64,000 nucleotides of DNA, from assembly GCA_050261575.1 (NCBI GenBank), contig JBLNDL010000050.1, forward strand, positions 1 through 64,000. The letters are read 5' to 3'. Positions within the stretch are counted from its first letter, which is position 1. Every line of letters starts with the position of its first letter. Shown here piece after piece: positions 33,001 through 36,000 of this stretch. Position numbers: made by a program. The stretch comes from Sphingomonadaceae bacterium (GTDB lineage: Bacteria > Chloroflexota > UBA6077).

Positions 33001-36000
33001 CGCACCTCGTCCAGGAGCATGGTCTTGCCGATACGTCTGAGTCCGAGGAGAGCCAAATGGCGTTGGTCACCCTGATCGAGAGCCACCAGCAGTTCGTCGA
33101 AAAGTGCAAGCTGTGATCGTCGGTTGACGAAAACGGTGGTTGTGGCGGCCATCCCTGCCATCGCCCTCCCGCGCGTGTTGTGGTATTCTGTAACCCATCT
33201 GGATTATAACCCAAATGGGTTACAGAATACCACAATCGTGTCCGCATCTCTCCGAGATTCTCCCAAGCGAGGATCCCCTGTTCTGCCGATTGCCTACGGT
33301 GCGAGACCGCTGGCTCACTCCCAGCCTGCCGAACTCATTAGCGGACGGACATGCTCATCATCATCGTAGCATCGCACCACAGTGTTCACCGTTGGCGACT
33401 CGTTCCAACGGCCGAGGAAGCTACTTGCCTCCTTACCCTGTCGGCGAGATCGACTATCCTGGAGACTGGCCCCCTCTTACAAGCAACTCCTCGACCCGAA
33501 ACGGAGGAAGGCGACCAGCAAGGTGATGCCCAGCTTCAAGAATAGAACACAGGCGCAACGATTAACAGGCCAACAGTAGCTTTGTGGAGGCCTACTCATA
33601 GAGGAACGGGGAGGACACGGCATAGCTCGATTGATCTCCGGGCAAAGGGGATGTATGATGGCAGAGACAATCGAAATAGGGTTGCTAGGGGGGCGCGTCG
33701 GCGCTGAGAGTGCGGCCGTGGGGCCGCTGACCCTCGAACCTGATCTGGGTAATACCAGCGAAGGGAAGCACGACCTCGAGCAGTTCGGCCGCCATCCCGG
33801 GATGGCGGCCTTTCGTCACTCCCCCGCGCACCCTTCCGAGTACCCGTCTTCTGTGTCGGAAGGAGTACAGAGATGGCAAGCGAACTGCCCACCATTGGGA
33901 AGATCTCGCCGGAGATCTTCGACGAGATCATCCTGCCGCGCCTGGGGGCGAGATCCCCTCACATTCTGGTGGGGCCGCAGCACGGCGTCGACGTGGGCAT
34001 CGTCGACCTGGGCGGCGATCAGGTGATGGCCCTCACCACAGATCCCTTCTTCATCGTCCCGCAGTACGGTTGGGAGCGGGCGGCGTGGTTCGCCACCCAC
34101 ATCCTCGCCTCCGACGCGGCCACCTCGGGGCTTCGCCCCACCTACTTCACCGTCGACCTCAACCTGCCCCTCTCGGTGACCCGCGAGGCTCTGGAGATCA
34201 TGTGGACCACGGTCCACCGAGAGTGCGAGAAGATCGGCATGTCGGTGATCACCGGCCACACCGCGCGGTACGAGGGCACGGACTTCCCCATGGTGGGTGG
34301 CGCCACCGTGGTCTGCGTCGGACCCAAGCACAGGTTCATCACCCCGAACATGGCTCGTGTCGGCGACCAGGTGATAGTCACCAAGGGTGCCGCGATCGAG
34401 GCCACGGGGCTCTTCGCCGCCTCACTCCCCCACCTCGTGGCGGAGCGGTACGGCGAGGAGTTCGCCCGGCGGGCCGACAAGGTATTCGACATGATGAGCG
34501 TGGTCGAGGACGCAATGACGGCGGTCACGGTCGGGGTTCGGGACGACGGGGTCACCACCATGCACGACGCCACCGAGTGTGGGGTATGGGGTGGGCTGTT
34601 CGAGATCGCCCAGGCCTCGGGGGTCGGCATGCAGATCGACAAAGACAAGATCATCGTGCTGGAGGAGGTGCGGAAGATCTGCGACATGTTCAAGATCGAC
34701 CCTTACTCCTCCATCAGCGAGGGAACGCTGCTGCTCACTTGCCGGCCTCACAAGGCATCGGAGGTGGTGCGGGTCCTGTCCGACAAGGGCATCCCGTCCA
34801 GCATCGTCGGAGAGGTCACGCCGCAGGAGAAGGGGATGGTAGTCTTCGAGGGCTCGGCCTCCCGACGGCTGGAGCACCCGCGGGTGGACCCCTTCTGGAA
34901 GGCCTTCGGGGACGCCATCGCCACCGGTAAGGCGCCCGATCCCGCGTAGCACTCTTGCGAGGTAGGTGGGGCGCAACGTTGCGCTCGATCGCGTCGCGCC
35001 CCACCACGGACCACCCTGCCCAGGTTCCGTCACCCCGTCGGGTGATTCCGCACGAAGGTGTGGCCCGCCACGATCTCTCGCCTTCCTTGACTTTGGCCCA
35101 TCCGGTTGATATCCTCCCCATGCAGCATCGTGGGGGCGAGCGCGCACTCGCCCCTGTTTGGATTCGGGTTAGGTCCGGCGACGCGATGCGCGCTGTCCTC
35201 ACACCGTGAGCCTTCCGCCGGAGGGGTCGCGCCTGTCCCGCAGGGAGAGCGGGAAGTCTATCCAGGGAGGAACCCACTACGGCCAGCCAGCAGCCAACTC
35301 ACACCTCACACGCCCCGGGAGAAAGGGAAGCCGTCGCCGTAATCGACTTCGGCTCCCAGTACAGCCAGTTGATCGCCCGCCGGGTGCGGGAGTGCAACGT
35401 TTACTGCGAGCTGATCCCATACTACGCCCCTGCGGAGCGTCTGGCATCCCTCAACCCGAGGGGATTCATCCTGTCGGGAGGCCCCGCCAGCGTCTACCAG
35501 GAAGGCGCGCCCCAGTTGCCGTCCCACATCCTGGAGAGCGGGCTACCGATCCTCGGCATCTGCTACGGCATGCAACTGCTGGCCCACCGGTTGGGTGGAC
35601 GTGTGGCGCCCGGCGCCAGGCGGGAATACGGCCACGCCGAACTGCGGCTGGATCAGCCCGTCGCTCGCCTCTTCGAGGGGCTGCCGGAGAAGCTCCAGGT
35701 GTGGATGAGCCACGGCGACGTCATCACCCAAATCCCCCCCGGCTTCCGCTGCCTGGCCCACACCGAGAACTCTCCCCTGGCGGCCATGGGGAACGACTCC
35801 GGCGTGGTCGGGCTCCAGTTCCACCCCGAGGTCGTTCATACCCCCCTTGGCAAGGAGATCATCAAGAACTTCCTCTACCGCGAGTGCGGGTGCACCGGCT
35901 CCTGGACCCCCGGCTCCTACATCGCGGAGACCGTCGCCAAGATCCGAGAGCAGGTGCGAGACGGTCGCGTCATCTGCGCCCTCTCCGGTGGCGTCGACTC

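Follow-up and report, generated by a model that had tools for sequence, protein, structure and literature searches.

Many phyla carry a gene, here called X, whose product belongs to a conserved family of the PurM/ThiL/HypE fold without a name of its own, and our analysis supports its membership in the thiamine regulon. We describe X in a 64,000-nucleotide window (the whole stretch of DNA that was analysed) of a Chloroflexota genome. We give about an even chance to the reading that X is a putative ATP-dependent kinase of the hydroxyethyl-thiazole alcohol, which would convert HET to HET-P and, in auxotrophs, thiamine to thiamine monophosphate (TMP). Both the substrate and the phosphoryl transfer onto an alcohol are what we infer from the observed aptamer, gene, fold, conservation, operon partners, and co-occurrence patterns. 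The PurM fold is known for chemistry on the oxygens of amides or carboxamides and on phosphate and selenide; to our knowledge, no member phosphorylates an alcohol.

Thiamine synthesis is usually seen as a solved pathway, as an excerpt of PMC11223231 presents it, so unnamed genes of the TPP regulon are expected to serve salvage or repair.

The locus is organized around a TPP aptamer and an intact open reading frame with an ATG start and no internal stops (Table 1). The aptamer is covered whole, at E 2.5e-10 and over the gathering score of 54.3 bits; the window holds just one other Rfam match. It was aligned with 20 others, taken from orthologue leaders and from the two further TPP sites of this genome. 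It ends 90 nt before the start codon of X on the same strand. A promoter-like site ends 18 nt 5' of the aptamer, and the scan picked up two such sites in 2 kb, where shuffled sequence would give 0.2. Between aptamer and gene, a hairpin present in the minimum-free-energy fold (33787-33796 paired with 33801-33810, loop CCGG) may act as the expression platform; the terminator scan passed over it, its T run being short. The Shine-Dalgarno-like GGAAGGAG pairs with upstream bases in the predicted fold, so translational control is also possible, and the riboswitch would act either by termination or by masking the ribosome site. An inverted repeat past the stop codon, at which the terminator scan made no call, possibly ends the transcription unit. 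Farther downstream in the window lie guaA, purD, purB, and purC; a purine link was considered and rejected, as this arrangement is not kept at an orthologue locus of 88% identity.

Table 1. Features of the X locus, positions counted along the window.
Feature	Position	Strand	Basis and remarks
Promoter-like site, TTGATC-17 nt spacer-TATGAT	33631..33659	+	Consensus scan, 9/12 matches, pattern only
TPP riboswitch aptamer (THI element)	33677..33783	+	Rfam RF00059, 64.3 bits, model 1-105 of 105
Candidate expression platform: 10-bp G+C-rich hairpin, then TTTCGTC	33787..33817	+	Sequence reading and MFE fold
Shine-Dalgarno-like GGAAGGAG	33858..33865	+	Sequence reading; 7 nt 5' of X ATG
Gene X, 358-aa AIRS + AIRS_C (PurM-superfamily) enzyme	33873..34949	+	ORF, Pfam, predicted structure
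Perfect 10-bp inverted repeat GGTGGGGCGC ... GCGCCCCACC	34965..35005	+	Sequence reading; 16 nt past X stop
Promoter-like site, after the inverted repeat and before guaA	35087-35115		Consensus scan

Pfam finds two domains in X, AIRS (46 bits, cut-off 24, residues 40-145) followed by AIRS_C (72.7 bits, cut-off 23.1, residues 162-322). The scan returned no further domain and no PF02110 at E <= 0.1, and the ThiD models PF08543 and TIGR00097 gave no match. No NCBIfam model reaches its cut-off, with HypE at 98.1 bits (251.6), ThiL at 78.2 (184.15), and SelD at 66.2 (125). The AlphaFold model (pLDDT 94) shares a two-domain alpha/beta fold with HypE, ThiL, SelD, and PurM, whose chains Foldseek matches with probability 1.00; the closest solved folds are HypE, SelD, and ThiL, at about 20% identity. 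Across 30 aligned family sequences, 47 columns are invariant. The Asp positions common to the fold's families are invariant, as are its GxT and DxT motifs, which speaks for a competent enzyme, and invariant residues also include K10, H129, H231, C270, and D339/W342. The N-terminal loop of X carries an invariant Gly-Lys and lacks Cys in all 30 sequences, and the last 80 columns hold no conserved Cys, the protein ending in ...KAPDPA.

Comparison with the named relatives separates X from each of them. HypE (carboxamide dehydratase, TIGR02124; PDB 3wjp, 2z1e) is the best match, at 98 bits and TM-scores of 0.77-0.82, but X falls short of the 252-bit cut-off, lacks the C-terminal cysteine that carries the carboxamide in HypE, and has no hyp genes among its conserved neighbours. 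ThiL (TIGR01379; PDB 3c9r, 3c9t) shares fold (TM-score 0.64-0.74), pathway, and ATP site motifs, but X, at 78 bits, stays below the cut-off of 184, and canonical ThiL is encoded beside X in three operons. SelD (TIGR00476; PDB 3u0o, 2yye) shares the fold, and its alignment with X extends into the N-terminal loop; the SelD gene is frequently adjacent to one for a NifS-like desulfurase, as X often is. X nevertheless reaches 66 bits against 125, and its loop has neither Cys nor Sec.

Selenocysteine at stops within matches to X was considered and rejected, as four of the five inspected are true stop codons. In the copy at locus L141, a TAG takes the position of Trp67; the single TAG noted in the copy of genome G203 is most likely its terminal stop, since no stop interrupts the tblastn match, which runs to 5990 in an ORF that ends at 5993. 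Only three longer X proteins appeared at E <= 1e-40 (Plug+X, X+ThiD, and X+ThiN+nicotinamidase); each comes from a single contig and may be a gene-call merge.

The family is widespread. Orthologues at E <= 1e-79, together with a fragment at a contig end and a copy that is split, occur in 39/401 Chloroflexota genomes; two genomes flagged unpublished, G219 and G145, are counted among the 39, and none of their loci was used. At least 595 loci lie in one-genome-per-species contigs from many phyla, and more than 6,500 database proteins are related to X at E <= 0.001. Databases label X only as 'AIR synthase family' or, wrongly and in some cases automatically, as 'HypE', and a protein atlas returned nothing but 'AIR synthase family protein' clusters. 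Literature searches, with supplements outside their scope, found no paper on the family and none joining the TPP riboswitch to AIR synthase.

Association with the TPP aptamer recurs across this range. Aptamers over the Rfam cut-off lie within about 200 nt 5' of X in 18/36 other Chloroflexota genomes and in this genome, and 2.9 kb 5' of X in one further carrier (20/37 in total); 17/37 have none near X. Across phyla, an aptamer precedes X in 31/80 loci, always on the strand of X and nowhere else in those loci, and 11 of the 13 weakest matches exceed Rfam's own gathering score.

The partners of X point to thiamine. In Chloroflexota, thiE lies immediately 3' of X in 7/35 loci, and an ABC permease with an NMT1/THI5 binding protein follows X in 8/35, with a clustered ATPase ORF in seven of the eight. 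Across phyla, X pairs with ThiE in 18/80 loci. X-ThiN pairs occur in two loci, and in L098 the order is riboswitch-Thi4-X. The operon riboswitch-X-TenA-ThiE-ThiL-ThiD is found in L086, L099, and L137, where both TenA and ThiL score over the NCBIfam cut-offs. The genes of L082 follow this order too, but the search found no aptamer at that locus, and the ORF in the ThiL position is confirmed only as Pfam AIRS + AIRS_C. The partners of X in this operon are all the thiamine salvage enzymes except a thiazole kinase. Conserved neighbours across loci include neither hyp genes nor a second conserved partner of unknown function. These aptamers, domains, and partners uphold the genome-wide survey's note in its central claim, a riboswitch-controlled PurM/ThiL/HypE-fold enzyme of the thiamine regulon. 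Its supporting data held as well: the aptamer's span and score and the subthreshold HypE and ThiL scores of the 358-aa AIRS + AIRS_C product were reproduced, and its 30 orthologues in 301 genomes, its 12 aptamers in 20 loci, and its operons with thiE or thiZ/thiX agree in kind with our counts.

The same neighbourhoods bear on whether X might instead be a PurM-like cyclo-ligase or repair enzyme acting on a formamide-bearing thiamine breakdown product (formylaminopyrimidine or ring-opened thiamine). Activation of a formyl or amide oxygen by ATP is the classical chemistry of the fold, X stands directly 5' of TenA in 7/80 cross-phylum loci and of ThiZXY in 8/35 Chloroflexota loci, and the ThiY-type binding protein of Bacillus is reported to take up a formylated pyrimidine. 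Against this, ring-opened thiamine closes again unaided at neutral pH, and representatives of family f30 have X without TenA, ThiD, or ThiE and would have no use for a pyrimidine product. The use of FAMP is discussed in an excerpt of PMC10470507. As this repair activity would also leave the ThiM exclusion and Thi4 complementarity described below unexplained, we consider it quite unlikely.

A second set of neighbours is of the isc type. Cysteine desulfurase, IscU, MnmA, FdhD, MOSC, or NadA genes adjoin X in 22/80 cross-phylum and 3/35 Chloroflexota loci; cysteine desulfurase is directly 5' in 15/80 and IscU in 8/80, with MnmA, FdhD, and MOSC 3', and a TPP aptamer lies between IscS and X in L113, L128, L129 (which also has IscU), and L157. 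A kinase role of X leaves the IscS/IscU neighbourhood unexplained. In a FastTree tree of 106 rows (L131 and L141, short or stop-containing, were omitted), all isc-linked copies fall within one clade; a division into two deep subfamilies, thiamine-linked and isc-linked, was rejected, as riboswitch-linked and isc-linked copies interleave. These neighbours, together with SelD and HypE as the nearest solved folds (TM-scores up to 0.77-0.82), would suit a primary role in the trafficking of sulfur or Fe-S, such as an activation step like that of SelD, with the thiamine links secondary. The catalytic loop of SelD is N-terminal and contains Cys or Sec; the invariant Gly-Lys of X occupies its position, but the loop of X has neither residue. 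Moreover, aptamers stand directly before X even within isc clusters, the aptamer association extends across many phyla, and X of f30 is co-transcribed with a thiamine-type ABC importer. We regard a primary sulfur role as highly improbable.

The survey's best guess was an HMP(-P) kinase in the place of ThiD; such an enzyme would deliver HMP-PP to ThiE or ThiN. ThiD was not found in 27/39 carriers, the operons of X with ThiE or ThiN look like the known arrangements of ThiD with these two enzymes (fusions of both kinds are known), and the fold is known to carry out ThiL-type transfer onto a phosphate ester. In family f56, moreover, X follows pdxS-pdxT, with no riboswitch found in the pdxT-X spacer, and ThiD and pyridoxal kinases are related. 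ThiD (TIGR00097, PF08543), a thiamine salvage kinase whose fold is unrelated to that of X, often lies in the same operons. It occurs over cut-off in 12/39 carriers, this genome included, which bears out the survey's statement that a minority of carriers have it (7 of 30 there); its association with X is weak (165/362 in other Chloroflexota, p = 0.09). It also shares the riboswitch operon of X in 9/80 cross-phylum loci by clustering, plus L142 and genome G199 (at least 10/80 loci plus G199), and in one ORF it is fused to X. The presence of ThiD in the same genomes and operons makes X an improbable substitute for it. In addition, ThiD-less carriers of the Dehalococcoidia type have a Pfam ThiD2 domain in 17/17 genomes, often fused to ThiE, and three relatives checked (G087, G252, and G168) have ThiC, ThiD2, ThiE, and ThiL and carry neither ThiD nor X. 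With the gaps of f30 described next, this makes the survey's proposal very unlikely, and we set it aside.

Carriers otherwise differ in their thiamine genes. This genome has ThiD (C78:132711-133466, 359 bits), canonical ThiL (C25:52499-53443, 266.5 bits), ThiG, two matches to ThiE, and an operon of thiXY type led by a riboswitch, and a search for ThiC found none, broadly in agreement with the survey; f56 also combines ThiG with X. Replacement of ThiL by X was rejected, as canonical ThiL exceeds its cut-off in 37/41 genomes tested, this one included. Family f30 is the sparest case. There, riboswitch-X-thiZXY holds the only TPP aptamer (9/9 genomes) and ThiL is over cut-off in 7/10; ThiE (0/12), ThiN, ThiD2, and ThiC (0/10 each) were not found, and ThiD was found in 1/12, a non-carrier of X. 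The nine carriers searched thus lack all five, and with ThiE and ThiN missing, HMP-PP would be of no use to them. Five representatives yielded no ThiG, TenA, ThiM, or TPK, and none reached the cut-off of NF007620. A pyrophosphokinase reading was also rejected. TPK is missing in 10/10 genomes tested, and the retention of ThiL in f30 points to TMP as intermediate. The imported vitamer must become a ThiL substrate and X is the only enzyme of the regulon in f30, which supports X as the enzyme responsible.

Co-occurrence profiles cover 401 Chloroflexota genomes and the 50 genomes behind the cross-phylum loci, and elsewhere small subsets; absence calls rest on single models, some genomes are incomplete, and the genomes are related. 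ThiM (PF02110) occurs in 0/39 carriers of X against 52/362 other Chloroflexota (52/401 overall; Fisher p = 0.005, with kin not independent), and in 2/50 of the genomes behind cross-phylum loci, both Thermomicrobiales with ThiM and X together. Among genomes with ThiC and ThiD2, in which neither ThiG nor ThiM was found (0/29 each), we predicted before the test that Thi4 and X would be complementary. Thi4 is present in 2/17 with X (G105 and G364) against 11/12 without X (p = 2e-5, uncorrected, in about 13 families), and 15/17 of these carriers lack ThiG, Thi4, and ThiM. The distribution of X suggests that it tracks the thiazole branch and not the ThiD gap.

Within the ThiC/ThiD2 set, the Thi4 pattern means that X complements a synthase, not a kinase. 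X could accordingly belong to a route that forms the thiazole without ThiG or Thi4, in which IscS/IscU would provide the sulfur and ATP would drive activation and ring closure of the PurM kind. The founding member of the fold closes a five-membered ring, and the desulfurase and IscU genes 5' of X, with MnmA, FdhD, and MOSC 3' and aptamers between IscS and X, fit this proposal. It sits poorly with f30, where carriers lack the ThiE or ThiN that would consume a thiazole, with the adjacency of X to Thi4 in L098 and its coexistence with ThiG in this genome and f56, and with the lack of a second conserved unknown partner gene across loci. The confinement of isc-linked copies to one clade also means that inherited gene order could explain the isc pattern. 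We judge this route unlikely; if it is true, Dehalococcoidia-type bacteria without ThiG, Thi4, and ThiM would be true thiamine prototrophs.

Two known kinases have the roles proposed for X as a thiazole/thiamine kinase. ThiM, a hydroxyethylthiazole kinase of ribokinase-like fold, occupies the same operon slot beside thiE, thiD, and tenA behind a TPP riboswitch and, by the counts above, almost never coexists with X. The folds are unrelated and X lacks PF02110; X, with a thiazole activity that we deduce, would thus work like ThiM without being a member of its family. ThiK, the enterobacterial thiamine kinase, has the role proposed for X in auxotrophs with ThiL and without TPK; the families are unrelated, and NF007620, which we take to be ThiK, reached its cut-off in 0/5 genomes tested and matched only E. 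coli among the controls. Counting against a thiazole/thiamine kinase are the genomes that combine X with ThiM or with Thi4, the aptamer-less carriers, the pdxS-pdxT neighbours in f56, and the isc-type neighbours.

As a thiazole/thiamine kinase, X would stand in for ThiM when its substrate is free 4-methyl-5-(2-hydroxyethyl)thiazole, or the 2-carboxy form of it, and ThiE or ThiN would receive the resulting thiazole phosphate. With intact thiamine as substrate, X would act in the manner of ThiK, and its product, thiamine monophosphate, would go on to ThiL. In this genome, the riboswitch would let a single-gene X transcript through when TPP is low, and X would recycle thiazole or thiamine beside ThiG-based synthesis and pyrimidine salvage by ThiXYZ and ThiD.

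If X is a kinase of the thiazole or thiamine alcohol, the gap at the thiazole in vitamin B1 reconstructions would be filled, both for organohalide-respiring Dehalococcoidia and for many uncultured lineages, and auxotrophs with ThiL only would gain their missing step from thiamine to TMP. The scoring of thiazole and thiamine auxotrophs in models of community cross-feeding would change, and phosphorylation of an alcohol would be added to the chemistry of the PurM fold.

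The genome-wide survey's note had described a TPP riboswitch ahead of an AIRS/AIRS_C (PurM-fold) gene, here called X, with no NCBIfam hit over cut-off, and the aptamer score and intact 358-aa reading frame listed below bear this out. Pfam matches of X are limited to AIRS and AIRS_C, and its best NCBIfam scores (HypE 98, ThiL 78, and SelD 66 bits) are each far under cut-off. An AlphaFold model built from a 30-sequence alignment has a pLDDT of 94; the closest solved folds are HypE (TM-score 0.77-0.82), SelD (0.70-0.77), and ThiL (0.64-0.74), at about 20% identity each. By their defining scores or residues, X falls outside HypE, ThiL, SelD, ThiM, ThiD, and ThiK. 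Bound TPP would favor the hairpin 3' of the aptamer, or would mask the ribosome site.

Features of the window and of ThiD2-ThiE fusion loci (L072-L075)
Feature	Location	Strand	Details
TPP aptamer	window 33677-33783	+	Rfam TPP model, full length; 64.3 bits (gathering score 54.3), E 2.5e-10
tRNA gene	window 21032-21106	-	63.4 bits; sole Rfam match in window besides TPP aptamer
Promoter-like hexamer pair	18 nt between its end and downstream aptamer		pattern match
G+C-rich hairpin	window 33787-33810		10 bp, then TTTCGTC; 3' of aptamer
GGAAGGAG	7 nt 5' of ATG at 33873		between hairpin and X
X ORF	window 33873-34949	+	358 aa, intact
ThiD2-ThiE fusion	L072:12824-13882		~350 aa, N-terminal Pfam ThiD2 (PF17792)
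ThiD2-ThiE fusion	L073:3498-4628		~350 aa, N-terminal Pfam ThiD2 (PF17792)
ThiD2-ThiE fusion	L074:2893-3939		~350 aa, N-terminal Pfam ThiD2 (PF17792)
ThiD2-ThiE fusion	L075:3001-4068		~350 aa, N-terminal Pfam ThiD2 (PF17792)

Downstream of X on the same strand lie guaA (GATase plus GMP_synt_C), purD, purB, and purC (window 35369-41176), and the 0.4 kb between X and these genes has a promoter-like site of its own. With pur genes nearby, a PurM-fold gene is easily mis-annotated; the pur genes are absent from the locus of an 88%-identical orthologue (G227, L034). The source genome also encodes a second unnamed AIRS/AIRS_C protein (G000:C8:52248-53222; L069:7243-8247), 34% identical to X and under every NCBIfam cut-off (HypE 104, ThiL 99 bits); such paralogues are common in the class.

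The X family is large and nameless. A database search with a threshold of E <= 0.001 returned more than 6,500 related proteins; among the best 120 matches (67-91% identity), the only labels are "AIR synthase family protein" and, from automatic pipelines, "HypE" or "hydrogenase maturation factor." Full-text literature searches found no paper on the family. Orthologues (E <= 1e-79, identity 38% or higher; a fragment at a contig end and a copy in two pieces are also counted) occur in 39 of 401 sampled Chloroflexota genomes, including the unpublished G219 and G145, and a clear gap separates them from paralogues (at most 37% identity). A pattern scan over contigs representing one genome per species turned up at least 595 relatives, of which the best 80, 56-72% identical to X, are labeled Chloroflexota, Desulfobacterota/Deferrimicrobia, Planctomycetota, KSB1, Ignavibacteria, Zixibacteria, Acidobacteriota, Gemmatimonadota, Myxococcota, Bacillota, and others. 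Among the 47 invariant columns of a 30-sequence alignment are the Asp, GxT, and DxT positions common to HypE, an N-terminal Gly-Lys, C270, and a C-terminal D...W. In L141, TAG stands where X has Trp67; in L145, a tRNA-Sec gene lies about 2 kb 3' of X.

Association with a TPP aptamer recurs across the family. With the Rfam TPP model, an aptamer over cut-off lies within about 200 nt 5' of X in 18 of 36 other carrier genomes and 2.9 kb 5' in one more (20 of 37 carriers, source genome included). This aptamer is the sole one found genome-wide in all nine genomes searched from Chloroflexota family f30, and in G132 and G177. When the 80 cross-phylum loci were searched with a custom covariance model built on 21 TPP aptamers, it matched 31 times, always 5' of X and on its strand; 11 of the 13 weakest reach the Rfam gathering score, and L099 and L145 fall short. 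In G203 (C27:43296-45157), an aptamer precedes a 37%-identical paralogue and ThiE; the thiamine regulon therefore extends to a more distant branch of the family. One X copy, split over two frames with ThiD 3' and an aptamer 2.9 kb 5' (L065; G199:C12:618151-619184), is possibly decaying. Two D-Ala-D-Ala-ligase-like ATP-grasp genes follow riboswitch and X in the same orientation in L048, L136, and L139; L048 also has genes for a lysine-2,3-aminomutase-like radical SAM protein and a GNAT protein.

Neighbors, for which the longest ORF was taken and the name of the cluster representative adopted, include thiamine genes. Among 35 Chloroflexota loci, X is followed immediately by ThiE in seven and ThiN in two, by an ABC permease and NMT1/THI5 binding protein in eight (the ATPase ORF clustered in seven of these), and, behind a frameshifted copy, by ThiD in one. 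In the 80 cross-phylum loci, ThiE (18), TenA (9), and ThiD (9, plus L142) lie 3' of X. The order X-TenA-ThiE-ThiL-ThiD occurs in four loci. L086, L099, and L137 have an aptamer ahead of it and a ThiL that is canonical by NCBIfam (3/3 tested); in L082 no aptamer was found ahead of it. L098 has riboswitch, Thi4, and X in that order.

The survey's note had proposed an HMP(-P) kinase that replaces ThiD, a proposal that these data do not support. Of the 401 genomes, 177 have ThiD over its cut-off (TIGR00097), as do 12 of the 39 carriers, a weak depletion (p = 0.09; like the other p values here, it overstates significance because the genomes are related). ThiD also lies in X operons, and one 828-aa ORF fuses the two. 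ThiE occurs in 189 of 401 genomes, and the 32 with ThiE and without ThiD divide into 15 with X and 17 without. ThiD-less Dehalococcoidia-type genomes carry a Pfam ThiD2 domain, fused to the N-terminus of ThiE in small genomes and in a separate 286-353-aa ORF in others. All 17 ThiD-less carriers of this type have it, as do the three X-less controls tested, which also have ThiC and ThiL, so the missing ThiD is explicable without X. Only the Pfam name implies HMP-P kinase activity for ThiD2, and literature searches found no paper on the domain.

The thiazole branch fits X better. ThiM (PF02110) occurs in 52 of 401 Chloroflexota genomes and in none of the 39 carriers (p = 0.005), each absence, here and elsewhere, resting on one model in partly incomplete genomes; it occurs in two of the 50 genomes behind cross-phylum loci L079-L128. 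In five Dehalococcoidia-type carriers with completeness of 98% or more, neither ThiG nor Thi4 was found. We then predicted that X-less relatives with the same ThiC/ThiD2-ThiE/ThiL set would need to carry a thiazole synthase, and Thi4 was found in all five of the X-less genomes first tested. Across all genomes with this set, Thi4 occurs in 2 of 17 carriers versus 11 of 12 non-carriers (p = 2e-5), and ThiG in 0 of 29; the split follows about 13 families, so independent events are fewer than the counts suggest. X and ThiG occur together in the source genome and family f56; ThiM likewise coexists with ThiG in many bacteria.

These patterns suggest that X is a kinase of the hydroxyethyl alcohol, which free thiazole and thiamine have in common. 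Since one group serves both, such a kinase would cover the ThiM-like operon slot, ThiM exclusion, Thi4 complementarity, and the minimal regulon of f30. ATP phosphoryl transfer is the step common to the PurM-type fold; to our knowledge, an alcohol as phosphoryl acceptor would be new for it.

Several observations fit a kinase poorly. Neighbors of isc type (cysteine desulfurase, IscU, NIL, Rrf2, CysK, serine acetyltransferase, HcyBio, MnmA, FdhD, MOSC, NadA) lie beside X in 22 of the 80 loci from across phyla and in three from Chloroflexota. In four of the isc-linked loci the aptamer lies between IscS and X (in L129, IscU too is on the IscS side). In our tree, every isc-linked copy falls in one 57-row clade, interleaved with riboswitch-linked copies; the enzyme is therefore the same in both settings. 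The adjacency is possibly inherited gene order, or the X reaction may use sulfur. Genomes holding X plus ThiM or Thi4, and G244, which lacks any thiazole source, also fit poorly, as does the PdxS-PdxT setting (5 of 35 Chloroflexota loci: the five f56 genomes, L036-L038, L040, and L041). There X lies about 240 nt 3' of a GntR/aminotransferase regulator, pdxS, and pdxT, with no riboswitch found in the pdxT-X spacer; elsewhere these genomes carry riboswitch-ThiD-ThiG-ThiE, riboswitch-ThiZXY, and riboswitch-TenA-TenA.

The f30 family also bears on the hydroxyethyl kinase reading: 10 of its 12 genomes carry X in the order riboswitch-X-ATPase-permease-binding protein. ThiE (0/12), ThiN, ThiD2, and ThiC (each 0/10) were not found; the only f30 genome with ThiD, G190, is without X. 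In five representatives, ThiG, TenA, ThiM, and TPK were not found, and model NF007620 was nowhere over cut-off. ThiL exceeds its cut-off in 7 of 10, the remaining three being incomplete assemblies. A passage in PMC3766115 describes TPP-regulated transporters for thiamine itself in auxotrophic Chloroflexi. Judged by gene content, f30 carriers are predicted thiamine auxotrophs in which X is the only regulated enzyme and the sole other thiamine enzyme requires TMP. In the simplest reading, X would convert imported thiamine to TMP.
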